64,000 nt of DNA from an uncultured bacterium. GTDB taxonomy: Bacteria; Chloroflexota; Dormibacteria; Aeolococcales; Aeolococcaceae. The position numbers and the translations under genes are program-made. The first letter of the stretch is position 1. Each line of letters starts with the position of its first letter. The notes beneath the pieces are model-generated. The model did not search any database. It was not told where the DNA came from and worked only from the letters and a program-made list of their open reading frames with translations. Shown here one piece after another: positions 18,084 through 38,597 of this stretch. The stretch is taken from assembly GCA_963716555.1 (NCBI GenBank), contig CAVQTJ010000002.1, forward strand, positions 241,311-305,310, written 5' to 3'.

Positions 18084-18105
18084 GGTGCCAGCATACTTGG
18101 AAGAT

Positions 18106-19286
18106 ATGCAACCTGGTTGCGTTTTCTCCAGGCACCGACCCTGCCGACCCCCCGCGCTGTTGCTCATGCTGGTCACGGGCCTGGCTCTGCTGAGCGCGGC
18201 CTGCCGATCTGCGAGCCCCTCCTCGACCGGCGAGACCGACACCGCCGGCACTGTCTGGCTGTGCCGACCGGGGATGACGAACGATCCGTGCGCGGGCAGC
18301 CTCGCCACCACCGTCGTCTCTGCTGGCGGCGCCCGCAGCACCCTGGATCCTGCGGTGGACGCGCAGTCGGCGTTCGACTGCTTCTACGTCTATCCCACGG
18401 TCAGCACCGAGGCCGCCGACAACGCCGACCTCACCGTGCAGCCTGCCGAGACAGACATCGCCATGGCTCAGGCCGCCCCGTTCTCGCAGGTGTGCAAGGT
18501 GTGGGCCCCGATGTACCGGCAGCGGACGGAGTCCTCGCTACTGAAGGGGCTGGGTGACGATCCGCAGGCCGACACCACCGCCTACAACAGCCTCCTGGCG
18601 GGGTGGAAGGACTACCTCGCCCACTACAACGACGGCCGACCGATCATCCTCATCGGTCACTCCCAGGGGGCGGCGATGCTGATCCGCCTGATCTCCCAGC
18701 AGGTCGATCCCGACCCATCGCTGCGGGCCCGGGTGGTCGTCGCCATCATCGCGGGTGGCAACGTCGCTGTTCCCACGGGCGAGACGGTGGGGGCCACCTT
18801 CCAGCACATCCCCCTCTGCACCGCTCCGCCCAGACGGGATGCATCGTCGCCTACTCCACCTTCCCCTCGGAGCCGCCGGCCAACTCCGACTTCGGCCGGC
18901 CCGGACAGGGGGTCAGCCTGCAGTCCGGCCAGACCGCCACCCAGGGTGTCCAGGTGGCCTGTGTCAACCCGGCGGCGCTGGGCGGCGGCACCGGGGAACT
19001 GCAGCCCCTCTTCCCCGCCTCGACCTCCACACCGCCGCCGCCCCAGGTGACCACCCCCTACGTCACCTACCCTCACCTTTACTCCGCTGCCTGTCAGTCC
19101 GCGGGCGGCGCCACCTGGCTCCAGGTCACCACGCTGGCGCAGACAGTGGGCTCGCGCCCCGTCGTCTCCGAGCCGCTCGGCCCCGCCTGGGGCTATCACC
19201 TCGACGACATCAACCTCGCGCTGGACAACTTGGTCGACGACGTCCGCGCCGCCGAGGATGCGTACACCGCTATCCGGCCATCCTGA
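18106..19286 (+). pseudogene. Alpha/beta-hydrolase lipoprotein (DUF3089-like), frameshifted near 18825
   Basis: Lipobox LLSAAC and nucleophile elbow ILIGHSQGAAML. The C-terminal 150 aa (AQTGCIVAYSTFPSEPP...GYHLDDINLAL) are in a different frame. Confidence 0.7.
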
Positions 19287-19441: not shown

Positions 19442-20728
19442 TCAGGAGTTGAACTGCACGGCCGGGATGTAGGGCGCCAATCCCTCGTTGCCGCCGTCAC
19501 AAGTAGCGGTCGGGTACTGGGCGAAGGTCGTGCTCACGGCCGAGCAGGTGACTTCCCCGGGGCCAACGTCGTTGTACGCGTGGTCGTATCCGTTCCCGTC
19601 CGCGCTGGACGCGAGCGAGGTGAACACGTACCCGTTGTCAGTGTCCGCTCCGACGCTGATCTGGCTGGGACCAAACTCGCTCGAGAGCTGGACATTCACT
19701 CCGCCATCAACCGAATTCTGAGCATCGTTGTACTGGATTCCGAAGATGACCGTGCCCGGAAGCGTCACTGGCGCGTACGAGCCCCAGTCACTGAAGGTGA
19801 TGTTGAAGTTGGCGATGCCACAGGTGGGATCGCCTGCACCAGCGCCCGTCGTGCAATAGGCTGAACCATATCCCCCGTTGGGAGCCGCCGGGACACTGAA
19901 GCTTTGCTCATCGGTGGCGATCAGGGTACCGGGCAAACCCCCCGTGCCCGGATTGTAGATGTTGAGCGTGATGTCCATCGAACCCGCGGGGTTGACGTCG
20001 AAGTTCGCCATGTCCACGACGACGTTGTTCAGGACGCCGCCCCCGTTCGCCAGGCTGATCTCGTTACCGAACTCACCCATCTGAATGCAGTAGAAGCAGA
20101 GCGAGGCCTGGTATGTGGAGGAATCAATTCTGCTGTTGTAGAGAACCCCAGGCGAGTTGGCCCAGGACGCCGGTCCCGGGGCAGCGCACTGCTCGTTGGC
20201 CGCCGCTCCGTCAGCCCAGTTGTTCGAGCACTGAACCGCGTAGAACGTGACGGTCACAACAGCCGTCTGACCCTGATACGAGTTGTCCGCACTGCTGGAG
20301 AGGGTGTAGTCCACGGTCGCCGTGTAGGGGCCCGCCCCATCGGCGCCATTGAAGGCGTTGCCGACGCTGCTACCGATCACGACCGGGTTGGCGCTGGTTT
20401 GGGTCGTGCCGTTGATCGAGAGGCTGAGCTGTGAGCTCAGGATGCCCGACACGGTTGCCTCGGCCCCGATGTAGGCGGGCAGGCTGCCCCCATAGTTAAC
20501 CGTGAAGGCGCACGAGCCGGTGTCACCGGGCTCGAGGTTGGTCGCCGTCGGGCACGAGGCACTCTGCGGGGTGTTCAGGGTCACCGTTCCCGCCGTGAAG
20601 GTGGTGCTCGTGCCCGGGGATGTGGCGCTGAAGAGCGAGAAGCTGGCCCCGATCGTCAGGGCCGCGATGGCCCCAACCCCAACCACACCCGTGAACACCA
20701 GCGCAAAGCGCTTGGTGAAGAGATGCAT
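19442..20728 (-). CDS. TasA/camelysin-like exported protein (SipW-type signal) with an extra roughly 230-aa C-terminal domain
   Basis: N-terminus TM + SLFSATSPGTSTTFTAGTVTL, then PGDTGSCAFTVNYGGSLPAYIG and NSYQGQTAVVTVTFYAVQ, hallmarks of the TasA/CalY (M73-like) fold family. Confidence 0.75.
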   Translation of the reverse strand: MHLFTKRFALVFTGVVGVGAIAALTIGASFSLFSATSPGTSTTFTAGTVTLNTPQSASCPTATNLEPGDTGSCAFTVNYGGSLPAYIGAEATVSGILSSQLSLSINGTTQTSANPVVIGSSVGNAFNGADGAGPYTATVDYTLSSSADNSYQGQTAVVTVTFYAVQCSNNWADGAAANEQCAAPGPASWANSPGVLYNSRIDSSTYQASLCFYCIQMGEFGNEISLANGGGVLNNVVVDMANFDVNPAGSMDITLNIYNPGTGGLPGTLIATDEQSFSVPAAPNGGYGSAYCTTGAGAGDPTCGIANFNITFSDWGSYAPVTLPGTVIFGIQYNDAQNSVDGGVNVQLSSEFGPSQISVGADTDNGYVFTSLASSADGNGYDHAYNDVGPGEVTCSAVSTTFAQYPTATCDGGNEGLAPYIPAVQFNS

Positions 20729-20873
20729 CTGATGGTTCTCCTGTGACGCTTGGTAGCTATTGACTGGCTAGGGTCCAATGCGCATACGATGCGACTGTGT
20801 CGCCGACTTGCATTCGCTCAGTGGTGCCTCCTCTCTTCCCCTGCTCGTTGATGATCGCGATGTGGATTCGTCG

Positions 20874-22085
20874 CTAGCCCTCCTGGACATCGCCGGTGGC
20901 GGCGCGCCGACGTCGGGCCTCCTCCTCACCCAGGGCGGTCCAGCGTCGCCGGATCTCCTCCTCAGCCAGATACACCACCGGGATCATCACCAGGATTGCG
21001 AAGGTGAGTGGTTGGTGCAGCGTTGAGAGCGCGTACGCGCCGAAGGGAATCCGCAGCTGGTAGATGCCGAGAACCTGAGTCGGAGCAACTCCGGCCAGGT
21101 CGGGAGCGTTGTTGGCATCCCCCTTGGTTCGGTAGAGAACCGGCGACCTGAGCGATCCGCGCAGGACTTCGACGATGCGGTGGGTGACGATGAGCGAGCT
21201 GGACGCCGATTCGCGAAAGGTGATGATCTGACCGACGTGGAGGCCGGCTGCCTGCGGTTCGGTGACCGGGTCGTCCACGATCAGGTCCCCGGTGTCGATT
21301 GCCGGGGTCATCGATCCGGAGGCGACGCTGAAGACGGGATGACCCATGATCGTGTCAACCCCATCAGCGCCGTGCCGCACCAGGAAGGCGAGCGCCACGG
21401 CCACCACAGCGAGGATCACGACGAGAATGACGAACAACCGCCCCACGGCTCGGAGAGCGGTTGTGCTCCAAGGCTCGCGACGCCGCTTGAGATGAGCCGG
21501 GGGAGTCATTCGCCTGAAGTCACCCTGGCCGGCGGACGGCGTGGGCGACGCGGTCGAAGTCGGCGTTGGGCTGGGTGTGGGTGTGGGTGCCGGTGTTGGT
21601 GTGGGCGCAGCTGTGGCTGCGGGCGTGGGCACCGGCGTTGAGGCGGGCGCGGGTGAAGGCGTTGGTGACGCTGTGGCAGGGTTCGTGGGCGTCGCAGCCG
21701 GCAGCGCGCTCGGCGAAGCCATGGGTGTTGGCGACGTGAGCGAGCTCAGTGCAGGCGGGACTGGCGGCGGTGTTGTGGTCGTGCCGGGCGCTGGCGTCTC
21801 GGGCGGATCAGCGGTCGATGTCTCACCGAAGGTGGCTGACGGCGCCGACGCCTGCGCACTGAAGATCGCCCAGGTCGATCCAATCAACGAGCCGCGCAGG
21901 GCGAACACGCCAACGCTGGCAGCCAGGATTGCGTACAAAACGGCCAGCGAGCGGCGGGCGTCCCAGCGGCGCCGAGCGTCCGAAAGCAGGCGCCTCCACC
22001 CCCGCGTGCGCCGGTGACGCCGGATAGCGCGGGCGGTGCGGGTGACGCGGGGAGCTTCGCTCGGTCCCCCTCTCTGAGGCGACAA
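20874..22085 (-). CDS. sipW: SipW-type signal peptidase I (S26B-like) with a 192-aa N-terminal extension
   Basis: The C-terminal 211 aa are the peptidase core (VASGSMTPAIDTGDLIV, VTHRIV, TKGDANNAPD). The N-terminal extension has its own TM, a WAIFSAQASAPSATFG motif and a Pro/Thr/Ala-rich linker. An internal ATG at 21509 would give a canonical-length enzyme. Confidence 0.75.
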   Translation of the reverse strand: MSPQRGGPSEAPRVTRTARAIRRHRRTRGWRRLLSDARRRWDARRSLAVLYAILAASVGVFALRGSLIGSTWAIFSAQASAPSATFGETSTADPPETPAPGTTTTPPPVPPALSSLTSPTPMASPSALPAATPTNPATASPTPSPAPASTPVPTPAATAAPTPTPAPTPTPSPTPTSTASPTPSAGQGDFRRMTPPAHLKRRREPWSTTALRAVGRLFVILVVILAVVAVALAFLVRHGADGVDTIMGHPVFSVASGSMTPAIDTGDLIVDDPVTEPQAAGLHVGQIITFRESASSSLIVTHRIVEVLRGSLRSPVLYRTKGDANNAPDLAGVAPTQVLGIYQLRIPFGAYALSTLHQPLTFAILVMIPVVYLAEEEIRRRWTALGEEEARRRRAATGDVQEG

Positions 22086-22287
22086 CCTTCTCTCCTAGAT
22101 CCCGCCCGTCGCACCACGGCCGGGGCGGAGCACGAGGCTGGCCGTCACCGAGTGCGCCGCGTGACCGCCGGGCAGCACCGCATGTCGAACTCGGCCCTGC
22201 ACGGCTCAGCCTCACCTCCCGACCCACCCCGGAACCCCTGGCCCCGACGGTGAGCGCGCGCGCTCCCGACCGGGCCGGCCCGCCGTC

Positions 22288-23934
22288 TCAGTCGCGACGG
22301 CGGCGGGCAGGACCCGGCACTGCGCCGTTCGGTATCTCACCCTCCGGTCCGAGCCGCATCTGCAAAATTGAGGAGGTGTTCGCAAACGCAGGCGGCATGA
22401 TCGGGAGCCGCACCCGAGCCGACAGTCCTGGAGAGGCCTCGCCGATGGTCCGGTGGGTGGGTGTCAAGCAGATCTCACCGCCCTCGGACTCGACGAGCTC
22501 GCGGCACTGAGAGAGGCCGAGCCCACTCCCGGGGAGCCCGGACGCGGCAGCTCCCCGCCATCCAGGCTCAAAAGCCCTCTCCATATCCGACCCAGCGAGG
22601 CCCGGTCCGTCGTCCACGATGGTGATCTCGACCATGCCCCCGCCAGCAGAAGCATCGCGCTTTGCGGTCACGGTGACGGCTGCGAGCGGAGCATGCACCA
22701 GCGCGTTCGCCAGCAGGTTGTTGACAACCAGGGTCACCCGGTCGGGACGTCCGCGCACCATCAGGCCGGGCTCGACCATGACAAGCCACGCAGCGGTTGG
22801 GGTGATGTGCAGGGCGACAATCCCGAGCAGCAGCTCGGAGAGGTCATAGGGGCAAGCCACACCGCCATCCGCGGCCAGGACCCTCCTCAGGTGCTGAATC
22901 TGTCCGCGCACCGCTGTGATCAGCCGGTCGCCGTCCTCAACCCGCAGCTGAGCCCGCTGACCGGACAGGACCAGTAGCGCTCCGTCGATGGCGGTGAGCA
23001 TGCTGGCGATGTCATGGCTGGTCCCGCTCTGTGCGGAGCGGACGCGGGCCAGCTCGGTCTCCGCGGCGGCCCATCGGCGACGGCCACGCACGTCCTGGAG
23101 GACAACAGCGCCCAGGACTGATCTCAGGTCGATCGCTGCCAGCAGCAAGAGCTGTACCGCGCCAATCAGCAGGAAGAATGACGGCGGCGCTGCGGGAGCC
23201 GTGGTCGCGTCCAGCCGGCCCGCGGAGACGGCGGCGCAGCCGGCCGAGATGGAGATCAGCGCCACCGCGGTCGCTGCGATCACCAGATGCCCGGCGCGGA
23301 TCCCTCGAACCAGCAGGGGGGCGGCCACCATGGCACATGCCAGCGCCTCCAATGCCCTCACGCTGCCGATGCCGTCGCGGCTGCGCTGCGCCTCCACGAT
23401 CAGCGGGGTGAGTGCGAGGGCCAGGACCAGGGCCCCCCCGGCCGCCCAGCTCGCCACGACTCCGGGGCGGAGGCCGGAGCACACCTCCGGCAGGCCCAGT
23501 ACCCCGAGGAAGAGGACCAGCGCCAACAGCAGGGCGGTGGTCTGCAGCGCGGCCAGGTATCCGGGCATCGGATCGCCGGCGTAGATCGCAGGCACCACGA
23601 GGAGCCCAACCAGGATGGTGCCGGCGCCGATGGCGACGCTGGCCGCCTCGCCCACCAGGCGCCAGCGCATCAGAACCACCGCCCCTGCAGCGAGGAACAC
23701 CACCGACGCCGTGCCCGCTGTCGCCACCGAGGCGGCCTGCACGGGGAAGCCGGGAACGGCGCGGGTCACCCCGATCGCCGCCAGCGGCACCGCGATGACC
23801 GCGAACAGCGCCCACCCCGCCACTCGCGCCGCCAGCGGATCGGCGAGCCGGGGAACGATCCCACGGCGATCGGAGCCTCGGTAGCCGGATGAGCTGGACC
23901 CGGTGAGGAGCATCAGCGGGTACAGCACCGACAT
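22288..23934 (-). CDS. Membrane sensor histidine kinase
   Basis: Roughly 270-aa polytopic N-terminus, H-box SGTSHDIASMLTAIDG, and HATPase motifs NLLANALVHAP, DDGPGL, GSGLGLS. Confidence 0.8.
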   Translation of the reverse strand: MSVLYPLMLLTGSSSSGYRGSDRRGIVPRLADPLAARVAGWALFAVIAVPLAAIGVTRAVPGFPVQAASVATAGTASVVFLAAGAVVLMRWRLVGEAASVAIGAGTILVGLLVVPAIYAGDPMPGYLAALQTTALLLALVLFLGVLGLPEVCSGLRPGVVASWAAGGALVLALALTPLIVEAQRSRDGIGSVRALEALACAMVAAPLLVRGIRAGHLVIAATAVALISISAGCAAVSAGRLDATTAPAAPPSFFLLIGAVQLLLLAAIDLRSVLGAVVLQDVRGRRRWAAAETELARVRSAQSGTSHDIASMLTAIDGALLVLSGQRAQLRVEDGDRLITAVRGQIQHLRRVLAADGGVACPYDLSELLLGIVALHITPTAAWLVMVEPGLMVRGRPDRVTLVVNNLLANALVHAPLAAVTVTAKRDASAGGGMVEITIVDDGPGLAGSDMERAFEPGWRGAAASGLPGSGLGLSQCRELVESEGGEICLTPTHRTIGEASPGLSARVRLPIMPPAFANTSSILQMRLGPEGEIPNGAVPGPARRRRD

Positions 23935-23943
23935 CGGGTCCCC

Positions 23944-24648
23944 CTACCGAACCCACCGGGCGGGGCCATCCCTGGTCAACGGCAATCTCGCCCTGGCCAC
24001 CGCCGCGAGCTGGCTGGAGACGCCGAGCTTGCCGAGGATCGATTGGATGTGGCTTCTGACCGTGCCGATGGTGAGAGAGAGGGTCGATGCGATCTGCACC
24101 GCGCTCTCCCCGTCGGCGAGGGACCAGAGGATCTCTCGCTCGCGGGGTGTCAGCCTCGCCATCCGCCGCCTCACCTCGCGCTCTGCCTCCAGGCGGGCTG
24201 AGCCGATCTGCATGAGCAGGGGACGGTCGGCGTCACTGACCAAGGACCGGTGCCGCATCACGGCCTCGGCAGCCTCGATCAACCGCTCGAAAGGTTGGGC
24301 CTTGCTCACCCATCCTGAAGCGCCCAGGCTGAGAGCCGCGCCGAGGCGGGACTCCTCGGTGCTCGCGGTGACCACCAGGACCTGCGCGCCCACCGCCCGA
24401 AACCCAGGGATGAGGTCGAGGCCATCGTTGCCGGCGAGCCCGAGGTCCAGCAGCGCCAGGGCGGGGCGCAGTCGGGCGGCCTGCTCGAGAACCGTCTCCC
24501 GGCCAGTCAGCGAAGCGACGCAGCAAGTGAAACGATCGGAGAGGGCGAGGGCCAGGGTGTGTGCCAGCATCGTGTGGTCCTCGACGATCAGGATGTCCAC
24601 CGACCTCTCCGCCGGACACCGCTGCGGGAAAGTCACGAGTTCAGCCAT
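23944..24648 (-). CDS. NarL/LuxR-family response regulator
   Basis: REC domain (DILIVEDH..., LLDLGL) plus LuxR HTH (LTPREREILWSLADGESAVQIASTLSLTIGTVRSHIQSILGKLGV). Confidence 0.85.
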   Translation of the reverse strand: MAELVTFPQRCPAERSVDILIVEDHTMLAHTLALALSDRFTCCVASLTGRETVLEQAARLRPALALLDLGLAGNDGLDLIPGFRAVGAQVLVVTASTEESRLGAALSLGASGWVSKAQPFERLIEAAEAVMRHRSLVSDADRPLLMQIGSARLEAEREVRRRMARLTPREREILWSLADGESAVQIASTLSLTIGTVRSHIQSILGKLGVSSQLAAVARARLPLTRDGPARWVR

Positions 24649-25606: not shown

Positions 25607-26989
25607 TCAGTGGCCTCCCGGCCCGTGCCCGTGGTGCCCCGGCCCCGAGAGGGCCTGGACGAACTCGGCCACGTCGATGGTCCCGAGCCCGCTGGCCAAG
25701 TCGTAGCCCGGTCCGGCGTTGAACCCGGTGACCCCGGCGAAGGTGTTGTTGCCGCTGGTGATGTCGACGATTCCGCTGTCCTTGTGCCCGGCCATCTTGT
25801 AGAGGGTGGGGTTGAGGTAGCCGACGTCACGGCCGTTGGCCTGGTCGGCGAGCGCGACCACCCCCGCCATCAGCGGCGAGGACTCGCTGGTGCCGCCCAC
25901 GATGAACCAGCCACCCCAGCCAGGTGATGTGTCAAGGACGTCGACTCCGCCGTTGACCGCGGCACTCATGCTCAGGTCGGGGACGCCGCGCTGGCGGCCC
26001 ACCACCTTGGAGACCGAGTCCTGGAACTGCGGGCGGGAGAAGACCACCGACAGGCCGCCGCCACCAGCCCCGTAGCCGTCATTCCAGACGACGTCGGGCG
26101 AGGTGCGGTTGCCTGCGGCATTGAGGTGCAGTTGGGTGCCGCCCATCGCCGTGACCAGCGGATCGGTGGCCGGCCAGGCCACCACCGGGTACGGGTAGAG
26201 GGTCGAGAGGTTGGACTCGTAGTCGGTGGCGCCCGCGTCGCCGGTCGACGCGAGGACGGTGACGTTGTGGGCCTCTGCGTTGAAGTAGGCGCTGCGCAGC
26301 TCCTGGATCGACTGGTTGTCCGGGAAGGTCTCCTCGGTGGCCGCGAAGCTCTGGGAGATCACGTCACCGAGGTGATGGTCGATCACGTAGTTCTCGGCGT
26401 AGACGATGTCCGGGAATCCCTGGACTCCCTCGGTCTCCGAGTCCGGGGTCTCGACCAGCAGGATGTTGGCGCCCGGCGCCATGGAGTGGGACCACTCGAC
26501 GTCCAGGCTGGTCTCCAGGCTCCAGCCTTCACAATCGGACACCCCGAACGGGTCGTCCGTGCAGGGCGGTACCGGCCCGGCCGGCTGGATGATGTGGAAG
26601 GAGGGCGGCGCCGGCAGCCCCTGCTCCGAGTCGAAGGTCGCCAGGTCGCTCTGGATGTTCGGCGAGCCGAACGCGTCGACGATCACGATGGTCTTGCCCC
26701 GACCGGTGATCCCGTGCGCGTAGAGCGCGTCGGCGTCATATGCCTTCTCCAGCTGGAACGGCTGATAGCAGGCGATCCCGAAGTCGGCCTCGCACTCGGC
26801 GGTGGTGGGCGGCTGGGCGAGGTCGCCCTTGGCCAGCACGTGCCCCGCGGAGAGGGGAACCAGCCGAAGGGCTGCCACCGCAGCCGAGGCCGCCGGGACC
26901 ACCGGCAGCGCCGCTCCGCTGAGCACAGCCACCCCGCCTGCCGCGAGCAGGCGCGAGAAGCTCCAGGCACGTCGTTGATGCATGATCAC
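25607..26989 (-). CDS. Secreted S53 (sedolisin/kumamolisin-like) serine peptidase
   Basis: Signal peptide, IVIVDAFGSP, ETSLDVEWSHSMAPGA and catalytic-Ser motif GGTSESSP. Confidence 0.8.
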   Translation of the reverse strand: MIMHQRRAWSFSRLLAAGGVAVLSGAALPVVPAASAAVAALRLVPLSAGHVLAKGDLAQPPTTAECEADFGIACYQPFQLEKAYDADALYAHGITGRGKTIVIVDAFGSPNIQSDLATFDSEQGLPAPPSFHIIQPAGPVPPCTDDPFGVSDCEGWSLETSLDVEWSHSMAPGANILLVETPDSETEGVQGFPDIVYAENYVIDHHLGDVISQSFAATEETFPDNQSIQELRSAYFNAEAHNVTVLASTGDAGATDYESNLSTLYPYPVVAWPATDPLVTAMGGTQLHLNAAGNRTSPDVVWNDGYGAGGGGLSVVFSRPQFQDSVSKVVGRQRGVPDLSMSAAVNGGVDVLDTSPGWGGWFIVGGTSESSPLMAGVVALADQANGRDVGYLNPTLYKMAGHKDSGIVDITSGNNTFAGVTGFNAGPGYDLASGLGTIDVAEFVQALSGPGHHGHGPGGH

Positions 26990-27997: not shown

Positions 27998-28909
27998 TCA
28001 GCTCTCGGTGAAGTCGCTGGAGAGCTCCTCGGTGTCGCCGGTGTTGCTGGTGGTGGTGACCCCCGTCTCGAAGAAGCAGTCGCCACCAAAGGAGAGGCCG
28101 ACTGACTGGACGTTCTGGACGGCCTCGGTGAACGCCTCGGTGACGGCGGGGTTCGCCCCGCTCTGGCCGTTCCAGTCGGACCACATGCCGGGGTCCGACA
28201 TGCTGGCCGAGATCATTTCCGGCCCCTGATCTCCGGTGAGCAGCTGCAAGGACTCAGGGTTGGACCACCAGAATTTGGTGTAGAAGCCGGCGGGCGGCGA
28301 CCCCCCGCTCGACCCGGACGCCGATGGAGAGGTGAAGTAGAACCTCACCGCAGCGGGTGTGTTGCTGGCGCAGTCGCCACCATCATCCTGCGTCATGAAG
28401 CCGCTCGCCGGACCGCTGAGAGAGATCGTGTCATTCAACGTCGTCGTGGATAGATCGCCGGTCAGCGAGCTGTCGGTGGTGGTGAGCAACGCGGTGTAGA
28501 CGTTGTCCTTGAAGACAAAGCTCGTGGTGGTCCCCGTCGTGGTTGCCGGCATCGAGTTCGGGGAGTGGCGCGGCGCGATCTCACGGCCCGACGGGTTGTA
28601 GTCGTACACCGTCCAGTCAGCAGTCGCGCCTGAGGGGTCGGTTGCCACGGCGCAATTGTCGGTGCCGGTGGCGTTGAGAGCATTCACCTCGGTGACCAGG
28701 TTGGCAAGCGCGGTCTGGTCCAGCGACACAGCGACGCTGTGACCGTCGCTGCAGGTGAGTGTGGTCTGGGTCCCGCTCACGACATCGGCAGCGGCGCTCG
28801 CCGGCCATGCAGCCACGGCGACAAGGCACGCCAGCGCCATGCAGACTGGAAGCGAACCCACCGGTCTCAATGCTCGCCCATACCGGGTGAGCCCGAATCT
28901 TCGAATCAC
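27998..28909 (-). CDS. Secreted hypothetical protein
   Basis: GTG start. Signal peptide ...CLVAVAAWPASAAADV. Thr/Ser-rich mature protein; no family recognised. Confidence 0.5.
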   Translation of the reverse strand: MIRRFGLTRYGRALRPVGSLPVCMALACLVAVAAWPASAAADVVSGTQTTLTCSDGHSVAVSLDQTALANLVTEVNALNATGTDNCAVATDPSGATADWTVYDYNPSGREIAPRHSPNSMPATTTGTTTSFVFKDNVYTALLTTTDSSLTGDLSTTTLNDTISLSGPASGFMTQDDGGDCASNTPAAVRFYFTSPSASGSSGGSPPAGFYTKFWWSNPESLQLLTGDQGPEMISASMSDPGMWSDWNGQSGANPAVTEAFTEAVQNVQSVGLSFGGDCFFETGVTTTSNTGDTEELSSDFTES

Positions 28910-29122
28910 GGCAGTTGTCCTCCGGACATGCTGTTGGGTTGGACCACACCCAACCACCGGCACCCTCCGATGACCTACTGCGCTCCGATCACCTCCATCG
29001 CACGACTCGCCTTCATTGACGTGGCGGTACCTCGCCTTCCTGATCGCCGCCAATAAGTTAGGCGTCCCGTACCGCCACCGTCAAACAGCGCGCACCGGCC
29101 CGCACGCGCCGCCCGCAATCCC

Positions 29123-30125
29123 TCAGCCGATGAGCCCGGCCTGACAGATCGGGCAGCGCACCGCGCCCTCCTCCCTCGGAGCCCCGCAGGACGCGCACCG
29201 CAGCGGCGTCGCCGGCACCCGCTCGACGCCGGTCGAACCCGCCGCCGGGACCAGCGCCTCCCCGTCGGGAAGCAGCAGATGGAAGCTGCGGGCACGCATC
29301 GCCAGCGCGGTCCAGGGAAGCTCCGGGTAATCGGGATCGAGCGCCGCGAGTTCGATCGACGGTCGCGATCGCCTGATCACGCTCACCAAGCAGGTAGTCG
29401 ACAACCGCGGAGTAGTAGACGCACTGCCGCTGCGCCGGACTCAGCGCCTCACCGCTCGGAGGTGTCACCCTGCCCAGCACCGCCCGTGCCTCACGGAGAT
29501 CCTCGCTGCACATCAGCCCATAGGCGAGGTGAGCGGAGGCCGACGCGCGCGCCTCAGCGCTGAGCCCCGCGCCGGCAACCACCACCGTGAAGCTGGCGAT
29601 CGAGGCGTCGACCGCGCCGTGTCGCAGGCAGGCCGCCGCATACCAAGCGCGCATCCGCCAGTCGTCAGGGGCCTGCGCCAGGTACGCGCGATAGAAGCGG
29701 ATCGCCGCCGCCAGGTGCAGGTGGCGGTGGTGCCAGCGGGCCATCGCCGCCAGAACCAGCGGAGAATCCGGCGCCACGGCGTACGCCGACTCGAGCAGCG
29801 CCCGAGCGTCTGGCGGCTCCCTCTCGGCCTCGGCAACCAGGACGCGCACCCTCCACACCGGACGGCGCAGCTGAACCAGACCGATCACCAGCAGCGGAAG
29901 GCCGAGCGGAGCCGTGACCACCAGCAGGGTGAGCAACACGCCCCAGGCGATCTTCTGCGGCGGCAGCCACGTTCGCGGCGACCAAGCGGAGCGCTCCTGG
30001 ACCTCATCGCGTTCGAATCCCACTAGCTCCCGCGGCCCGAACCGCCGCGACACCGCGGATGGCGGATCGGCGAGCATGGCGGCGGGCTGGTCGGAGGCCA
30101 CAACCAACCTCACCATCACCGACAA
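29123..30125 (-). pseudogene. Membrane-anchored TPR-like protein with C-terminal zinc ribbon, frameshifted near 29350
   Basis: TM plus helical-repeat region in one frame. The C-terminus ...RCASCGAPREEGAVRCPICQAGLIG is in another frame. Confidence 0.45.
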
Positions 30126-30232
30126 TTCCGACTCTCGAGCATCCGGTTCTTCGCCCGAAAAGCTTAGGGGAACGAGACGAGCGGCATCGGCGTCACCGGC
30201 GGGAGCGCGCTCGCTCCAGGGAAGCCACCTCG

Positions 30233-31093
30233 ATGAGTGAGCGCACCGCCGCGGCGCCTCATGCGCACGGCATGCTCGCGACGGCTATCCGGGGGGCGCT
30301 GGTGCTCATCCTCTGCGCCCTGGCAGCGGTCACCCTGGGGTTCATCGCCCCGGTGGTCGTCCCGATCGGCGTCCTGCTCGTGCTCACCGTGCTTCTTGAC
30401 CCGGGCGGCCTGGGCACCAAGCTGCGCGCATCGCCGGGCTGGTGGGGGTTTCCCGGCCTGCGCTGGGGCTCACGCGGCGCGCTGCCCTTCGCGAGCCTGG
30501 TCGCCTGCTACACGGTGCTGCTCCCGGCGCTCGCCTTCGCCGGGCTGCGCCTGATCCCGACCGGGCCGGGACCGCTGGCCACCGTCCCCGGCCAGCAGGG
30601 GAGCTCGGCGACGGCGCAACCGGGATCGGCGGCGCCGTCCGGATCGGGAGCATCCGGCCCGGGCACGACGCACTCGGCGCAGCCGGGGACGCAATCGCCC
30701 TCAACACGCCATCGCCCCACGCCCGGAGGAACGTCCACCGCGGCGAGCAGCCCCACCGGGACGGCCACCCCGACCCCGGGCACGAGCCCATCCCCCACCA
30801 TCTCCCCTTCACCCACCTCCACACCGTCCCCAACCAACATCCCCACCCCGACCTCCACGCCGGAGATGGACCTCTGCGGGGCCCCGGCAAATCCCTGGGG
30901 CTACAACCTCTGCAGCGGCCCCGAGATCACCGCGGCGCCGGCCACCTTCTGCTCCTATTTCATGTGCGTGTCCCACTTCTCCACCGGGAGCGGTTACATC
31001 GTCGAGTGCTCCTCCGGCGACTACTCCTGGGACGTGATGACCGGCAACGTCCACCAGATGTGCGGCCAGATCCTCCAGCCCCTGTACGCCTGA
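30233..31093 (+). CDS. Membrane protein with a Pro/Thr/Ser-rich linker and a Cys-rich C-terminal domain
   Basis: Starts MSERTAAAP. 3-4 TMS, a PT-rich linker, and C-terminus DLCGAPANPWGYNLC...FCSYFMC...IVECSSGDYSWD. Confidence 0.5.
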   Translation: MSERTAAAPHAHGMLATAIRGALVLILCALAAVTLGFIAPVVVPIGVLLVLTVLLDPGGLGTKLRASPGWWGFPGLRWGSRGALPFASLVACYTVLLPALAFAGLRLIPTGPGPLATVPGQQGSSATAQPGSAAPSGSGASGPGTTHSAQPGTQSPSTRHRPTPGGTSTAASSPTGTATPTPGTSPSPTISPSPTSTPSPTNIPTPTSTPEMDLCGAPANPWGYNLCSGPEITAAPATFCSYFMCVSHFSTGSGYIVECSSGDYSWDVMTGNVHQMCGQILQPLYA

Positions 31094-32126: not shown

Positions 32127-32846
32127 ATGGCACGGACCGCAGAGGGGGAGGCGACGAGCGAGGACAGCCGCGGGGACGATCGGACAATCCGCGTCCTGGT
32201 GGTCGACGACCACCGCGCGGTGGCTGAATCCATCGCCATGGCCATCGACCTCCAGCCGGACCTCCGCTGCGTGGGCATCGCCGCCACCTCCGCAGAGGCC
32301 AGGGCGATGCTGCTGATCAAGAGCCCGGACGTGGTCCTCACCGACGTCCGCCTGCCCGACGGTGACGGGGTGGACGGGGCCCGCCGGCTGCTCGAGCTCC
32401 GCCCCGACCTGCGGGTGATCGTGCTCACCGCCCACACCGACCTCGACGTGATCGCCCGCGCCGCCTCCGCCGGGGTCTGCGGCTTCCTCCCCAAGGAGAG
32501 CGGCATCGGCATCGTGCTGGATGCGATCCGGCGCGCCGGCGAGGGCGCGATGGCGATCGACTCCGCCGTGCTCGGCGCGGTGCTGCACCGCGTCCAGAAC
32601 GAGCCACCGCAACCGGCCGAGACGCTGGGGGGCGATCTCACCGAGCGCGAGCGCGAGGTGCTCGGGCTGCTCGGCCAGGGGCTCGACCCCCAGGCGATCG
32701 CCCGCCAGCTGGGGATCAGCCTGCACACCTGTCGCGGCCACGTGAAGAGCATCCTCGCCAAGCTCGATGCCCACAGCCAGCTCCAGGCGGTGGTCAAGGC
32801 CAGCCGGCTCGGCCTGGCCCGGGGCTTCGCCGATGACCGAGGCTGA
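32127..32846 (+). CDS. NarL/LuxR-family response regulator
   Basis: REC (IRVLVVDDHRAV...VVLTDVRLPDGDG) plus LuxR HTH (LTEREREVLGLLGQGLDPQAIARQLGISLHTCRGHVKSILAKL). Confidence 0.85.
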   Translation: MARTAEGEATSEDSRGDDRTIRVLVVDDHRAVAESIAMAIDLQPDLRCVGIAATSAEARAMLLIKSPDVVLTDVRLPDGDGVDGARRLLELRPDLRVIVLTAHTDLDVIARAASAGVCGFLPKESGIGIVLDAIRRAGEGAMAIDSAVLGAVLHRVQNEPPQPAETLGGDLTEREREVLGLLGQGLDPQAIARQLGISLHTCRGHVKSILAKLDAHSQLQAVVKASRLGLARGFADDRG

Positions 32847-35800
32847 GACCGGCACCGACCTGGCGGCGCAAGCGGGAAGCCGATCCCTCCCCGCGCTGCT
32901 CCGAGGCGTGGCCGGGGGGAGCGATGAGCAGGTGCTCACCGGCGCCCTGCCCCTGCTCTGCGCCGCCCTGGGTTTCGAGGTGGGGCACGCCTACGCAGTT
33001 GAGGATCAATCCACGCGCTCAGTGTCCTGGCACCTGGCGGACGCCCGTTTCGAGCCGTTTCGCGCCGTCACCCCGCCGGGCAGCCCGGAGCCCGCGGGGG
33101 TGGTGGTGGCCGCGCTCACCAGCGGGGAGCCGGTGTGGCTGGAGGATATGCGCAGCAACCCCGTCTTCCTCCGCTCCCGGGCCGCCGAGGTGACCGGCCT
33201 GAACAGCGGAGCCTGCCTGCCCGTCCGCGCCGGAAGCGAGATCCTGGCGGTGCTGGAGCTGTTCAGCACCCAACCGCCCCCCATCCGCGCCGCCACCCGG
33301 GCCATGCTTCTCGACTCCACCGACGCCCTGGGGGAGGCGCTGACGGCCGCGCGCCGGCAGTCGAGCATGCGGTCCGCGGCCCGGCTGTGGCACGCCATCT
33401 TCGAGGGCCCCCAACCAGTGGCGGTGGTGGGGGTGGGACTGGAGGTGCTGGAGGCCAACCCCGCGCTCGGCGAGCTGCTCGGCACCGAGCCCTCGAGGAT
33501 GTCCGGCCTCAGCCTTGTCGATCTCGGCGCCACCGAGGATGACCGCGAGGTGATCGGGCTGCTGGCCGCCCGGCTCGATCGACCGCAACCGAATGGCGAG
33601 TCCGCCAGCCTGGCCTGCGTCCTGCACGACCGGCGAGAGCACGAGGTGGAGGTCGGGATCAGGGCATGGCCGGCTCCTGCGGAGGACGGCGAGGCACCCC
33701 GGCTCATCTGTCTCATCACCCCGGCGCGGCAGGCCGCCGTGACCGGCCGCGGTGGGCGCTTCGACGAGGCCCGAGCGGTGCTCAGCGAGCTGCCGCGCAT
33801 CCGCGACCTGGAGCGGCTGGTCCCGGTGGCCATCGCCTGCGCGGCGCGGCTCTCCGGCGACTACGCCGGCCTGGCCCTGCTCCAGCCCGAGGGCGGGGGC
33901 TACGCCAGCTACCACCACACCTCGCCCGACGGCTACGCGGTGGAGCTGCAGTCCGACCGGGTGGCCCGGATGCCGATCCTCGATGCGCTCCGCCAGGAGG
34001 ACCGGCCCATCCGGGTGGCCAAGGTCTCCGACCATCCCCTCTTCGTCGGCTTCCCCCCGGGCCAGCCCGCCCCCAACGCCTTTCTGGGCGTGTCGCTCCG
34101 GGCGGCGGGCCAGACCGTGGGTCACCTGCTCCTGGCCCGGCGGGAGCCCGAGCCCTTCTCCGACCAGGAGGAGGCGGTGGCCACCGAGATCGCCGCGGTG
34201 ATCGCCCAGGTGGTCCGCCTGGTGCGCGCCGAGGAGCGGATCCCGGTTCTGCGCACCCGGGCCCAGCGTCTGGTGCGCGCCAACCTGGCCCTGATGCGTC
34301 AGGTCCGCCCGGAGGGGGTCGCCCAGTGGTCGGTCAACGACCTCCGGACCACCGTCGACGCCGAGTATGCCGCCCTGCTCATGAACGGAGTGGAGGGCGA
34401 CGGAGCCGCCTCCTTTGTCCATTCCGGGCTGGCCAGAGGGCGGACGGCAGCGGTGGCCGCGTCTCGCCCCGAGGCCCGGGGCCTCCTCGGAGCCGCGATG
34501 CTGACCCGCCGGCCGATGCGCCTCGCCGACCTCCGCGACCATCCCACCCACTCCGCGCTCCCCGACGGCCACCCGGAGATGACCTCGTTCGTCTCCGCCC
34601 CGGTGATCCGCCAGGGCGAGGTGATCGGCCTGCTCTTCGCCACCAACAAGCGCGGCGCCGCCGAGTTCAGCCCCGACGACGAGGCATTCGTCGCCCAGAT
34701 GGCCACCGAGCTGGGCCGCTCCCGGCTGCTGGGGGCCGAGCCGGCGCCCGCGGACGTCATGGAGCGCCTGGTGGTGGCCTCGCGCGCGCTGCGCCACCAG
34801 ATGGACACGACCCGGTCGTTCCTGGGAAGCCTCTCCCACGAGCTCCGCGGCGCCATCAGCGGCATCCTGATCTCCGCGGAGCTGCTCACCGACCCCTCCC
34901 TGGGGACCCTCGGGGAGGAGCAGGTCCGCGTCCTCGCCATCCGGATCCACTCCGTGGCCGGCAACCTGCTCACCCTGGTGGACAACCTCCTCGACCTGGG
35001 ACAGCTCGAGGCGGGCCGGCTGGACATCCAGCTGCAGCCCGTGGACCTCCCCGCGGTGCTGCACGACGTCGAGGATGTGGTCAAGCCCCTGGCGGAGCGC
35101 GCCGGGGTGAGCCTCGAGTGGCCGCGGCTCGCCCGGGTCCCGAGGGTGGTCGCCGACCCGGTGCGGCTGCGCCAGGTGCTGGTCAACCTCATGACCAACG
35201 CGGTCAAGTTCACCCCGGCCGGAGGACGAGCCTGGTTGGAGATCACCCCCGATACCGAGACCGTGAGCCTGGCGGTGTGTGATACCGGCCGGGGTGTCCT
35301 GGAAGAGGAGCGGGAGCGGATCTTCGAGCCCTTTGCCCGGTCGGCGCAGGCGGGCATCGACCACGTCCCCGGAGTGGGGCTCGGGCTGGCCATCTGCCGG
35401 CGCATCACCGAGCTGCACGGCAGCCGGCTGGAGCTGGTCAGCGAGCCGGGCTTGGGCAGCCGCTTCTCCTTCAGCCTGCGGCGCTCCCGGGAACCGCTGC
35501 CTCCACGGCTGCTGCGCCCGCCGGGAGGCGCGATCGGGGTCGCCGGCCGGGACGGCGCGCCACTCTCCGTGCTCCTGGTCGAGGACGACCCGGTCAACCG
35601 CCAGTCGATGAGCGACGTGCTGACCGCCGCGGGCTATCAGGTGCGGGCGGTGGCGACGCGGTCGGCGGCGCTGGAGTCGGCCGGCAAGCACGCTCCGGAC
35701 CTGGTCATCCTCGATGTCCAGCTGCCCGACGGTGACGGCCTGGAGATCGTGGACACCCTCCGCTCCACCGCGGCCCGGTCGCTGGCGGTGGTGGCGGTCT

Positions 35801-35937
35801 CCGCCGACCGGGTGGGCGACGTGGTCGACCGCGCCGCCCGGGCCGGGTGCGACCGCTTTGTCCTCAAGCCGGTGCCGGCCCGCGAGCTCCTGGCGGTGGT
35901 GGGCTCGGCGCTGGTGGACGTGAGAGCGGGTATCTGA
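32833..35937 (+). CDS. Cytoplasmic hybrid sensor histidine kinase (GAF/PAS-like repeats, HisKA, HATPase, REC)
   Basis: ATG overlaps the regulator stop (ATGA). H-box LGSLSHELRGAISGI. N/G boxes NLMTNAVKFTP, DTGRGV, GVGLGLAICRRI. C-terminal REC LLVEDDPVNR...ILDVQLPDGDG...KP. Confidence 0.85.
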   Translation: MTEAETGTDLAAQAGSRSLPALLRGVAGGSDEQVLTGALPLLCAALGFEVGHAYAVEDQSTRSVSWHLADARFEPFRAVTPPGSPEPAGVVVAALTSGEPVWLEDMRSNPVFLRSRAAEVTGLNSGACLPVRAGSEILAVLELFSTQPPPIRAATRAMLLDSTDALGEALTAARRQSSMRSAARLWHAIFEGPQPVAVVGVGLEVLEANPALGELLGTEPSRMSGLSLVDLGATEDDREVIGLLAARLDRPQPNGESASLACVLHDRREHEVEVGIRAWPAPAEDGEAPRLICLITPARQAAVTGRGGRFDEARAVLSELPRIRDLERLVPVAIACAARLSGDYAGLALLQPEGGGYASYHHTSPDGYAVELQSDRVARMPILDALRQEDRPIRVAKVSDHPLFVGFPPGQPAPNAFLGVSLRAAGQTVGHLLLARREPEPFSDQEEAVATEIAAVIAQVVRLVRAEERIPVLRTRAQRLVRANLALMRQVRPEGVAQWSVNDLRTTVDAEYAALLMNGVEGDGAASFVHSGLARGRTAAVAASRPEARGLLGAAMLTRRPMRLADLRDHPTHSALPDGHPEMTSFVSAPVIRQGEVIGLLFATNKRGAAEFSPDDEAFVAQMATELGRSRLLGAEPAPADVMERLVVASRALRHQMDTTRSFLGSLSHELRGAISGILISAELLTDPSLGTLGEEQVRVLAIRIHSVAGNLLTLVDNLLDLGQLEAGRLDIQLQPVDLPAVLHDVEDVVKPLAERAGVSLEWPRLARVPRVVADPVRLRQVLVNLMTNAVKFTPAGGRAWLEITPDTETVSLAVCDTGRGVLEEERERIFEPFARSAQAGIDHVPGVGLGLAICRRITELHGSRLELVSEPGLGSRFSFSLRRSREPLPPRLLRPPGGAIGVAGRDGAPLSVLLVEDDPVNRQSMSDVLTAAGYQVRAVATRSAALESAGKHAPDLVILDVQLPDGDGLEIVDTLRSTAARSLAVVAVSADRVGDVVDRAARAGCDRFVLKPVPARELLAVVGSALVDVRAGI

Positions 35938-36181: not shown

Positions 36182-37858
36182 ATGGCACCGCGCGCCGGCC
36201 CACGATTCCATCCGCTGCGGACCATCATCAGCGTCTTCCTGGTGGTGGCCGCCATCGCCGTGGTCCTGGTGGTGGTACCCGCGGCGCAGTCGCTGGTGCT
36301 CGGAAGCAAGCTGACGTCCGTCACCGATTTCGGTATCTCGGGCAGCGTGACCAACCTGGCGCCCGGCCTGGGCTCACCGCTCGACCTCACCGTGAGCAAC
36401 CCGTACACCAACGCCGAGGACGCGATCACCCTCCTCACGGTCACGGTCCAGGTGTCACCGACCTCAACCATCACCTCGGTTCCCGCCAACTGCCCTGGGA
36501 CCGACCTGTCGCTCCAGTACAACGATGTGACGACCCCGCTCACCGGCAGTCCGGCTCAGGCGACCGTCACGCTGTCGTCTCCCCAGCCCATGATCCCGGC
36601 GAGCAGCTCGGCGTCATTCACTGATATTTCAGTCCTGCTGGCCACCGGCGCCAGCAACACCGGCTGCCAGAACGTCACCTTCCCGTTCAACTACTCGGCC
36701 ACCGGCAGCTACAAGGACGCGACGACCACCACGGTCGCATCCTCCTCGCCGGGCAACACCGCCGATGTCAGCCAGCCGGTGACCTACACGGCCACGGTGA
36801 CCCCGTCAATGTCGGGTCAGTCGTCGAATCCGACCGGCACGGTCATTTTCTATGACGCGTCGACCCCGATCGGCTGTTCCTCTTCGACCCCATTCAACTT
36901 CAACGGCGGCAGCAACACAGGCACAGCGACGTGCACGACCAGCTATGGTTCCACTGGCGCGCACTCCATCAGCGCGATGTATTCGGGCGACAGTGACTTC
37001 GCGGCCAGCACGTCGGCCACCATCACAGAGGTGGTCGTGGAGAGCGCCTGTGTGAGCATCTCCACCGGCGGGTCCAACACGACCACGATCACCGGCACGT
37101 ACGGCGGCAACTTCGAGGTCACGGCCGGCAAGGTCCTGTACATCAAGGGCGGGACCATCACCGGCAACGTCAAGGTCGACGCGGCGGGAGCGCTGCTGGC
37201 CTCGGCCGGAACGATCAACGGCAACCTCCAGTCCTCCGGAGGCCCGGTGGCCGTCCAGGGGACCACCGTGGATGGGAACCTGCAGGCGACCGACGCCCAG
37301 GCCTCCGTCGGTGCCGGCACCACCGTCGACGGGAACCTCCAGGTGAGTGGCACCTCGGTCTTCTGCAGCCTCGGATCCACGACCCAACCGGTCACCGTCA
37401 AGGGCAACCTCCAGGTCCAGTCGCTGCTCAGCAGCTCCACCAATGAGCTGATCTGCGGCACTGCCGTCAGCGGCAACATCCTCTATCAGAGCAATGCCTC
37501 TCCCGCCACCGTGGGCGGTGGGACCTCGAACTGCCCAGGGAACACCACCAATGGCAACTTCCAGGTTCAGAGCAACACCGCCGCGCTGGTCATCGACGGC
37601 AACAAGGCCGCCGGCAACTTCCTGGTGCAGAGCAACACAGCGCTGCTGAGCATCACGGGCAACACCACCGGGGGCAACTTCCAGGTCAGCGGCAACACCC
37701 TGCCTGCGCACACCTACCCGCCATACAGCACCCTCACCAACAACACGACTGATCCGAGCGGTGGCAACTGTCAGCTCAGCGGCAACTCCCCCGGTATCAC
37801 CGGCAGCGGCAACACCGTCCCGCCGGGCCGGGCCAACACATGCAACGGGAGCGCGTGA
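36182..37858 (+). CDS. Membrane-anchored surface protein: Ig-like domain plus beta-helix-like GN(L/F)Q repeats
   Basis: N-terminal TM; Ig-like segment (VTYTATVTP...GTVIFYDASTPIGC...ISAMYSGDSDFAAS); about 12 repeats of ...G(T)xxGN(L/F)Q(V/A/S).... Confidence 0.6.
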   Translation: MAPRAGPRFHPLRTIISVFLVVAAIAVVLVVVPAAQSLVLGSKLTSVTDFGISGSVTNLAPGLGSPLDLTVSNPYTNAEDAITLLTVTVQVSPTSTITSVPANCPGTDLSLQYNDVTTPLTGSPAQATVTLSSPQPMIPASSSASFTDISVLLATGASNTGCQNVTFPFNYSATGSYKDATTTTVASSSPGNTADVSQPVTYTATVTPSMSGQSSNPTGTVIFYDASTPIGCSSSTPFNFNGGSNTGTATCTTSYGSTGAHSISAMYSGDSDFAASTSATITEVVVESACVSISTGGSNTTTITGTYGGNFEVTAGKVLYIKGGTITGNVKVDAAGALLASAGTINGNLQSSGGPVAVQGTTVDGNLQATDAQASVGAGTTVDGNLQVSGTSVFCSLGSTTQPVTVKGNLQVQSLLSSSTNELICGTAVSGNILYQSNASPATVGGGTSNCPGNTTNGNFQVQSNTAALVIDGNKAAGNFLVQSNTALLSITGNTTGGNFQVSGNTLPAHTYPPYSTLTNNTTDPSGGNCQLSGNSPGITGSGNTVPPGRANTCNGSA

Positions 37859-37862
37859 CCAC

Positions 37863-38597
37863 ATGAGCGCCGCTTTCACTCCCGACGAGCCGACGAGCCC
37901 GCGGCGCCTCGGCCACCGCTGGCGGCTTCTGGGCATCCTCGCGCTCGTGGCAGCAGCCGCCGCCCTGGTGGCGAGCATTGCGCTGGGCGCGCTGAGCACC
38001 AATGGAGCGGGCACCGGCTCGGCATCGACCGGCTCCGTTGCCCTGACCACCAACGGGTCCGCAACCATGAGCTGCACGGTTGGCCCCATGGCTCCAGGAG
38101 ACTCGTCGACGGGCTGGAGCGGCAACCCCATCACCGGACAGACCGACACGAAGTCGGCACCCTGCACCCTCTCGGTAACGTACGCCGGCTCGCTCTCCGC
38201 ATTCATCGGCCTCGGCGTCAGCGGGGAAAACGGCCTGTACGACGGTACGCCGAACGGACTGCAGCTCCAGATCAGCGATGGCGTCAACTCGTACTCGACG
38301 AGCGGAGCGGTCAATCCCAACACAGCGTCGGATCCGCTGTACGTCGCGACGGACCCCGGCACCGCCAGCGGCGGCGGCCACACCTACGACTTCACGGTGA
38401 ACTACGCACTCCCGCGGACCTACAGCAGCTCCCCGGATACGCAGGACAACACCTATCAAGGCCGCTCCACGACGCTCGTGTTCACCGTCTATGCCGTCCA
38501 GACCGTCGGCGACGGCTATGCGACGACCAACGGAATGTCGGGCGGCCCTGCCTGCACTCCCGGCCAGCAGTGTTCGGGCATCACCGCCTGGAGTTGA
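37863..38597 (+). CDS. TasA/camelysin-like exported protein, paralog 1
   Basis: TM plus ALSTNGAGTGSASTGSVALT. CTLSVTYAGSLSAFIG, NTYQGRSTTLVFTVYAVQ. C-terminus CTPGQQCSGITAWS. Confidence 0.7.
   Translation: MSAAFTPDEPTSPRRLGHRWRLLGILALVAAAAALVASIALGALSTNGAGTGSASTGSVALTTNGSATMSCTVGPMAPGDSSTGWSGNPITGQTDTKSAPCTLSVTYAGSLSAFIGLGVSGENGLYDGTPNGLQLQISDGVNSYSTSGAVNPNTASDPLYVATDPGTASGGGHTYDFTVNYALPRTYSSSPDTQDNTYQGRSTTLVFTVYAVQTVGDGYATTNGMSGGPACTPGQQCSGITAWS

Follow-up and report, generated by a model that had tools for sequence, protein, structure and literature searches.

A 64,000-nt stretch of contig CAVQTJ010000002.1 (assembly GCA_963716555.1; hereafter the window), from an uncultured member of the Dormibacteria, was analysed, and five co-oriented genes on its minus strand, running from 24648 to 19442, were delineated by an open reading frame (ORF) selection guided by the GC content at third codon positions (GC3), combined with inspection of the translations. 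These genes, together termed module A, encode in order a response regulator (RR_A), a polytopic sensor histidine kinase (HK_A), a small exported protein rich in proline and threonine (P/T-rich), a SipW-class signal peptidase (SipW_A) and a 428-aa exported protein with a TasA-like N-terminal domain (Table 1). We propose, with moderate confidence in the mechanism as a whole, that module A is a version of a tapA-sipW-tasA-type matrix or fibre operon, positioned directly downstream of a NarL-type two-component system.

An earlier, first-pass annotation of the same stretch had described four co-oriented minus-strand genes at 19442–24648, and all four were confirmed by domain models at these coordinates. 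What it had overlooked were a fifth gene, the two-domain nature of the exported protein and the recurrence of the core genes without a two-component system. The module A genes have GC3 values of 0.76–0.83, in a window with a GC content of approximately 70%, and homologues are found in other samples, for which reasons they were taken to be real. RR_A and HK_A have the features of a NarL/LuxR-type two-component pair: RR_A consists of a receiver and a GerE domain, with NarL as its closest NCBIfam match, while HK_A combines a HATPase_c domain with a candidate phospho-acceptor His in the box SHDIASML, which is visible in the translation; no HisKA Pfam model matched HK_A. The kinase gene starts 9 nt downstream of RR_A, and its product contains approximately 8–9 hydrophobic segments in residues 38–270.

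Domains of the 428-aa exported protein

The TasA/camelysin motifs quoted in the first-pass annotation were all found in the 428-aa translation, and the description of the exported protein as TasA-like held for its N-terminal domain, but not for the C-terminal domain, which belongs to an unannotated family. PF12389 (Peptidase_M73) matched residues 14–83 with 23.1 bits (gathering cut-off 22.5 bits), and the relatives P0028, P0039 and P0036 scored 23.6–26.7 bits with the same model. The structure predicted by AlphaFold2 from a 52-sequence alignment had a mean pLDDT of 82.5, with residues 1–37 disordered and beta-rich domains at approximately residues 42–166 and 195–427. When this full-length, two-domain model was submitted to Foldseek, tandem beta-sandwiches were returned at low TM scores (neuropilin, CBM22) and TasA appeared at rank 47; because this fold search was uninformative, the N-terminal domain was modelled separately (residues 28–180; pLDDT 75, pTM 0.70). 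In the PDB, the cryo-EM structure of the TasA fibre (8aur_A; E 2e-4, probability 1.00, TMq 0.53) ranked first for this N-domain model; FimG, CfaB, the PapG pilin domain, subunits of Csu and the thread of Sulfolobus acidocaldarius came next, all of which form donor-strand-complemented assemblies. The TasA-type beta-sandwich (jelly-roll) fold, for which a structural check had been suggested with the first-pass annotation, is thereby supported at the level of predicted models.

Searched on its own against the PDB sequences, the 428-aa sequence matched only TasA, and non-significantly (E 1.3). A profile of the N-domain, searched against the PDB, retrieved TasA (8aur and 5of1) with E values of approximately 0.02 through two collinear motifs, TF.sGT..L...NL.PGD and N.YQG....F.A.Q; the motifs are kept in 27 sequences. 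Sequence identity to Bacillus TasA is only approximately 13–16%. The equivalog model for Bacillus TasA (NF046066, cut-off 450 bits) did not match the window protein and gave only 14–18 bits with its relatives. As neither this model nor its SipW counterpart (see below) was reached, the two proteins are not regarded as TasA and SipW orthologues, and the TasA-like part is considered a member of the superfamily.

Both the cleavage site and the equivalent of the donor strand were placed by profile alignment with TasA. Cleavage is predicted at ASFS/LFSAT, which puts a Phe at P2' as in TasA, and a segment of approximately TSPGTSTTFTA aligns with the TasA donor strand D31–S41 (TasA strand as described in PMC10151520). 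The disorder of the N-terminal 37 residues in the monomer model counts in favour of such a donor-strand role. Among TasA-like orthologues, the signal peptide (window 20648–20728) was more conserved than the mature domain, with mean column identities of 0.85–0.91 versus 0.64–0.79, which is unusual for signal peptides. A camelysin-type metalloprotease was also considered for the 428-aa protein and rejected as highly improbable: its only recommendation is the family name of PF12389, while the protein has neither an HExxH nor a similar metal-binding motif and contains three histidines only, the PF12389 match spans just the signal and the first strands, and the structural relatives are fibre subunits.

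The C-terminal domain comprises approximately 240 residues, and pLDDT was mostly above 90 for residues 210–428. It matched no Pfam family, a profile search against the PDB revealed no sequence relative (E 1), and a weak similarity to the T-antigen pilin of S. pyogenes was non-significant (E 0.085). The domain (window 19445–20173) is rare, with 82 representatives in 1.84 billion proteins, and in most of these relatives it directly follows a similar SipW-like signal peptide without any TasA-like domain; a few relatives carry extra collagen repeats or a TIG domain. The TasA-like N-domain is in turn joined to various other C-terminal domains in other proteins. Such independent occurrence of the two domains would also fit a 428-aa protein that is processed by SipW but does not polymerise, for instance a monomeric adhesin or another surface or secreted protein, in which the TasA-like domain is only an export or stalk module. 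We regard this explanation as unlikely, given that the closest structural matches of the N-domain are TasA in its fibre state and donor-strand pilins, and that the gene is flanked by a conserved gene for a donor-strand-like partner, to which relatives add an anchored acceptor-like paralogue.

Peptidase, small gene and core cassette

The peptidase is encoded within a 403-aa ORF (20874–22085, minus strand), in which residues 219–393 matched TIGR02228, the model for archaeal-type signal peptidase I, above its cut-off of 51.85 bits. The SipW-type peptidase recognised in the first-pass annotation was confirmed by this match and by the Ser/His/Asp motifs GSM.P, HRI and GD.N..D, which are invariant among relatives, and the enzyme has a membrane segment at each end. 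With the Bacillus SipW equivalog model NF046067 (cut-off 190 bits), SipW_A and a second peptidase of the window, SipW_B, with 47–50% identity to it, remained under the cut-off at 97.6 and 106.3 bits, respectively. Judged by their sequences, both are SipW-class peptidases and not orthologues of Bacillus SipW.

The peptidase does not account for residues 1–189 of the 403-aa ORF, which correspond to a small protein with a basic N-terminus, a single hydrophobic segment, the motif GSTWAIFSAQASAPSATF and an extended tail rich in Pro and Thr; the gene for this protein is present in approximately 12 loci and ends in a stop codon of its own in L001, L003, L012 and L013. In L013 and L012 this stop overlaps the ATG of the peptidase gene (ATGA, TGATG), which suggests translational coupling. 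The window sequence has an extra G 5–8 nt before the peptidase ATG (21519–21530; AGGCGA compared with A-GCAGA in the closest relative), which deletes the overlapping stop and thereby brings the small gene in frame with the peptidase, resulting in the 403-aa fusion ORF. A genuine fusion was judged unlikely, as two positively flanked membrane segments would put the catalytic domain in the cytoplasm. Based on this topology, on the stop being kept in the nearest relatives and on other frame breaks in the window, the fusion was judged to be an indel that arose by recent mutation or through an error of assembly, and the peptidase most likely starts at Met190 of the ORF (position 21518). In the relative L003 (3442–4638), a second SipW-like peptidase was seen with a C-terminal extension of approximately 200 residues fused to it.

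Homologues of the 428-aa protein (n = 52) are almost all metagenomic. Those with names include a 'TasA family protein' of Candidatus Dormibacteraeota and a 'hypothetical protein' of Candidatus Dormiibacterota (P0044), and P0041 bears a JGI label taken from the SipW-signal model TIGR04088. A scan of one genome per GTDB species yielded nine loci, six labelled Dormibacteria or Dormibacterota and the other three labelled 'uncultured Actinomycetes', 'uncultured Chloroflexia' and 'bacterium'. Every orthologous locus displays the core order of small P/T-rich ORF, SipW and two-domain TasA-like protein, and the peptidase/TasA-like core was found in about a dozen Dormibacteria loci. The four-gene module for which the first-pass annotation had suggested a co-occurrence analysis was thus recovered in part: the small ORF-SipW-TasA-like core is conserved, while the response regulator and kinase lie outside it.

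In most loci that reach far enough, a second TasA-like protein comes next. The protein that closes the relatives' cassettes, TasA-like or of another kind, terminates in TP[SGT]TG followed by a hydrophobic stretch and then a basic tail (L001 9407–10213, L015, L016, L019, L022, L023 and L007 11028–11696), which resembles a C-terminal sorting signal, sortase-like or otherwise. Neither a TP[SGT]TG-tailed protein nor a TLxTC sortase motif was found in the window. A gene for a CPBP/Rce1-like intramembrane protease, also absent from the window, often lies just upstream of both cassette types distinguished below in relatives (L001 5814–6533, L008, L009, L019, L020, L022, L023, L034 and L105), and its product may be the processing enzyme for the C-terminal signal.

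Proposed assembly and proposed control by the two-component system

Homology and similarity of fold suggest how module A might work. The small P/T-rich protein and the 428-aa protein would be exported by Sec and both be cleaved by the dedicated SipW-class peptidase, with the cut predicted after ASFS/LF, upon which the N-terminal segment of the mature 428-aa protein (approximately TSPGTSTTFTAGTV) would insert into the next subunit by donor-strand complementation. Strand insertion of this kind would build a chaperone-free extracellular fibre, decorated by the C-terminal beta domain, which is probably a binding or adhesion module. The small protein, made up of a donor-strand-like N-terminus and a flexible tail only, could serve as a TapA-like nucleator or cap, and the third gene of relatives would contribute a membrane- or wall-anchored TasA-like protein. 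Going by the adjacency of the genes and the precedent of BsaR/BsaS, which act on sipW-bsaA in Clostridium perfringens, RR_A phosphorylated by the intramembrane-sensing HK_A probably turns the cassette on; a kinase of this type would fit an envelope signal or a signal from unprocessed cargo. A more elaborate scheme, which we put forward tentatively and consider doubtful, is that of a chaperone-free fibre in three parts: a P/T-rich, mucin-like cap or nucleator that only donates a strand, a two-domain major subunit that displays its C-terminal domain along the fibre, and a base subunit that only accepts a strand and has a TPxTG-type C-terminal sorting signal, possibly handled by the CPBP/Rce1-like protease. 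In this scheme, a family of polytopic, intramembrane-sensing kinases would be dedicated to SipW cargo, with cassettes being exchanged behind the regulator pair.

The first-pass annotation had presented the two-component system as dedicated and apparently hard-wired to the cassette, a claim with evidence on both sides. In its favour, the dataset SRR30413545 contains one contig with an RR-HK pair that maps to window positions 24821–22263 at 90% nucleotide identity, and another with the small ORF-SipW-TasA-like genes that maps to 22245–19442 at 87.6% identity; the two contigs abut within 17 nt in window coordinates, so that the whole arrangement is very probably present in a related organism. Homologues of HK_A (n = 42) are nearly all metagenomic, and those with names come from five Dormibacteria/Dormibacterota metagenome-assembled genomes and one labelled Candidatus Binatia. 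Going by both sets of homologues, those of HK_A and those of the 428-aa protein, the window most likely derives from a member of Candidatus Dormiibacterota. For homologues with 48–56% identity to HK_A, a SipW cassette came next in all five independent informative contexts (L007, L008, L009/L010, L104 and L105), and the neighbouring response regulators were 62–69% identical to RR_A. This consistent succession ties the kinase family generally to cargo exported by way of SipW; the window, on sequence comparison, looks as if this regulator pair were followed by another kind of cargo cassette. L007 (8702–11696) has, in addition, a further TasA-like gene and a second SipW.

A number of results weigh against the proposed operon. 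The cassette behind the HK_A homologues differs from that of module A and consists of a small exported protein, a SipW-like peptidase and a DUF5305 protein, with a C-terminally anchored protein also present in four of the five contexts (no match to the anchored protein in L104). Furthermore, for both window peptidases together, 88 related SipW loci were surveyed using purpose-built hidden Markov models and a G1/G2-box pattern that recovered all known kinases in the set. Among the 30 of these loci with at least 3 kb upstream, none had a kinase and one had a response regulator, and with at least 5 kb on both sides the counts were 0/19 and 2/19, respectively. The two-component system is missing from every orthologous cassette with sufficient flank, no RR/HK was found up to 10 kb away in L016, L019, L021, L022 and others, and cassettes resembling the second SipW cluster of the window (L055 and L043) are likewise without one. 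Within module A, a 202-nt gap separates HK_A from the small ORF and a 145-nt gap, containing a Shine-Dalgarno-like AGGAG before the 428-aa gene, separates SipW_A from the TasA-like gene, which makes several transcripts possible; a scan of 19.2–25 kb revealed neither sigma-70 promoters nor intrinsic terminators, and a repeat search in the three intergenic regions gave no common operator. At the protein level, of the profile searches that had been suggested as a check, those with PF12389 and TIGR02228 passed, the former narrowly and limited to residues 14–83, whereas the NCBIfam TasA and SipW-cognate (alternate-signal) models did not match the 428-aa protein. The resemblance of the small ORF to the TasA-like N-terminus may stem from nothing more than recognition of both by SipW, the in-frame fusion would, if real, invert the topology of the peptidase, and the anchored TasA-like paralogue of relatives is absent from the window.

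The orthologous cassettes without RR/HK, the 202-nt gap behind HK_A and the fact that HK_A homologues always precede the DUF5305-type cassette, and never the cargo of module A, could all be accommodated if the two-component system were merely adjacent, belonging functionally to the DUF5305-type SipW cassette and having been moved by rearrangement, with the TasA-like cassette controlled elsewhere. This is possible, though we consider it less likely: the RR-HK-cassette arrangement is seemingly kept in a relative at approximately 88–90% nucleotide identity, both SipW clusters of the window come after a two-component system, and the association of the HK_A family with both types of SipW cassette speaks for a functional connection to the cargo that SipW exports.

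Known systems and other features of the window

The Bacillus operon is regulated by SinR/Spo0A. For B. subtilis, both the tapA-sipW-tasA operon and the donor-strand fibres of TasA are established (PMC9674648, PMC10151520), and it has been demonstrated that TapA residues 44–57 alone support biofilm formation and that the TapA N-terminus is donated to TasA (PMC10151520). Module A resembles this system in that a dedicated archaeal-type peptidase adjoins its substrates, in the order of accessory protein, peptidase and major subunit, in the Phe predicted at P2' and in a modelled TasA-like beta-sandwich whose N-terminal segment is placed as a donor strand would be. In contrast to B. subtilis, the window subunit has an additional 240-residue C-terminal domain and shares only the low identity given above, the small protein has a P/T-rich tail only and lacks the Ig domain of TapA, a two-component system lies adjacent, and the host belongs to another phylum and has 70% GC.

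For the regulatory genes, a parallel is found in C. perfringens: a sensor kinase and a response regulator are encoded within sipW-bsaABCRSD itself, and the sipW promoter requires them both (PMC7395162). A published model of BsaA has it polymerise by donor strands, with isopeptide bonds that lock the polymer; secretion and regulation of the Bsa proteins are affected by type IV pilus genes, and an LPXTG paralogue occurs in some strains (PMC11580942). As in the bsa operon, SipW, several TasA-like paralogues and an RR/kinase pair are encoded together in the window, the anchored paralogue that relatives of the window possess can be likened to the LPXTG paralogue, and type IV pilus genes, which influence secretion in C. 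perfringens, form a cluster next to the second SipW cluster of the window (module B, see below). The systems differ in the position of the two-component system, which is upstream in the window and downstream in bsa, in the lack of a VWA protein in the window and in the two-component link, which is not kept in orthologous cassettes of module A.

Archaeal TasA-like filaments, represented by the AbpA bundling pili (PMC9245690) and the cannulae (PMC12518558), are built from jelly-roll subunits by chaperone-free donor-strand complementation, and these systems rely on a general signal peptidase, with no adjacent sipW (PMC9245690). The module A protein would share with them a jelly-roll subunit of the TasA superfamily and, presumably, polymerisation; unlike the archaeal systems, the window has an adjacent sipW, and the accessory genes differ. 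The concept of a SipW-specific signal outside Bacillus is shared with the NCBIfam SipW-cognate signal class (TIGR04088, TIGR04089): the TasA-like protein of L007 nearly reaches TIGR04088 (18.6 vs 19), and the window proteins score below both models.

The first-pass annotation had supposed that such a system was uncharacterised outside Firmicutes and archaea, a supposition of novelty that was not supported by comparison with the literature. A wide distribution of PF12389 homologues has already been catalogued, covering Actinobacteriota, Chloroflexota, Fusobacteriota, Patescibacteria and archaea (PMC9245690), a relative of the 428-aa protein is already named as TasA family, and the characterised operon of C. 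perfringens (PMC7395162) has already established for Firmicutes the principle that SipW and a TasA-like protein are combined with a two-component system in one operon. Our literature search found no paper mentioning both Dormibacter* and TasA, and no experimental work outside Firmicutes and archaea was found in the literature searched. The features that module A has of its own are the two-domain subunit, the minimal protein in the tapA position and the upstream two-component system with its polytopic kinase. Dormibacterota is an uncultured phylum of soil and peat, and if donor-strand fibres are indeed formed, TasA-type matrix building would reach another phylum, the small protein would constitute a minimal natural TapA analogue (signal peptide, donor strand and flexible tail), and the subunit would bear a cargo domain along the fibre, a property of some interest to the design of protein materials. 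That the kinase family pairs repeatedly with SipW cassettes also offers a handle on the sensing of such protein export. Current views are not overturned by these findings.

The recurrence of the architecture, likewise claimed in the first-pass annotation, was borne out by module B (32.1–43.3 kb), which comprises a response regulator, a hybrid kinase, a second SipW and three TasA-like genes (Table 1). Hydrophobic segments were looked for in HK_B and none were found. The TasA-like proteins of module B share the PGD, Y.G.L.Y.G, YQG and AVQ motifs with the N-domain of module A and terminate exactly at the boundary of the TasA-like domain, and they have no Pfam or NCBIfam match of their own. TasA-like B2 aligned with the module A N-domain at 39427–39711 (47% identity, E 3e-9, tblastn) and continues in another frame at 39788–40120, while B3 was 27% identical to B1 (E 5e-7) and has a 65% identical relative in L055. 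Relatives of the fn3 protein come after TasA_B3-like genes in L040 and L055.

Table 1. Positions of the module A and module B features in the window and the evidence for each assignment
Feature	Position	Strand	Evidence
RR_A, NarL/LuxR-type response regulator	23944–24648	minus	Response_reg 53.1 bits, GerE 49.2 bits
HK_A, polytopic sensor histidine kinase	22288–23934	minus	HATPase_c 63.6 bits
Small exported P/T-rich protein, tapA position	21519–22085	minus	Translation; separate gene in relatives
SipW_A, SipW-class (archaeal/ER-type) signal peptidase I	20874–21518	minus	TIGR02228 89.8 bits
428-aa protein: signal peptide and TasA-like N-terminal domain	20189–20728	minus	PF12389, profile, Foldseek
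428-aa protein: C-terminal beta-rich domain, unannotated family	19442–20188	minus	Predicted structure
RR_B, LuxR-type response regulator	32127–32846	plus	Response_reg 74.2 bits, GerE 51.6 bits
HK_B, cytoplasmic hybrid kinase/receiver	32767–35937	plus	Hybrid HK models 190–234 bits, residues 672–1050
Exported 558-aa protein, Big_3_5 and repeats	36182–37858	plus	Big_3_5 54 bits; one N-terminal hydrophobic segment
TasA-like B1, single domain	37863–38597	plus	Alignment with module A N-domain
SipW_B, second SipW-class peptidase	38602–39267	plus	TIGR02228 98.2 bits vs cut-off 51.85
TasA-like B2, frame-broken near 39.7 kb	39427–40123	plus	tblastn with TasA_A N-domain
TasA-like B3	40135–41088	plus	Alignment; similarity to B1
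Exported fn3 and Gly-rich repeat protein	41090–43324	plus	fn3 38.3 bits

Some further features were recorded in and around the two modules. A GC-rich palindrome past the kinase stop of module A folded no better than shuffled sequence (z 0.26), Rfam gave no match anywhere in the window, and a convergent gene follows the 428-aa gene. The type IV pilus-like cluster directly after module B (44199–49251) encodes PilB (MshEN and T2SSE), PilC (two T2SSF halves) and two N_methyl pilins. Mid-gene frame changes were observed at approximately 18.8, 39.7, 43.2 and 44.95 kb and at 45.8–47.2 kb, affecting a DUF3089-like hydrolase (18085–19286, a name assigned by eye), B2, the end of the fn3 protein, PilB and PilC, and their number suggests either an indel-prone assembly or several pseudogenes. 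Between and beyond the modules, a subtilase-like peptidase (25607–26989), a 351-aa exported protein of an unannotated family (27998–29053) and a membrane protein with a P/T-rich region (30059–31093) are encoded, and further on lies the gene for a PMT_2 glycosyltransferase (52589–53953), which could glycosylate P/T-rich proteins.

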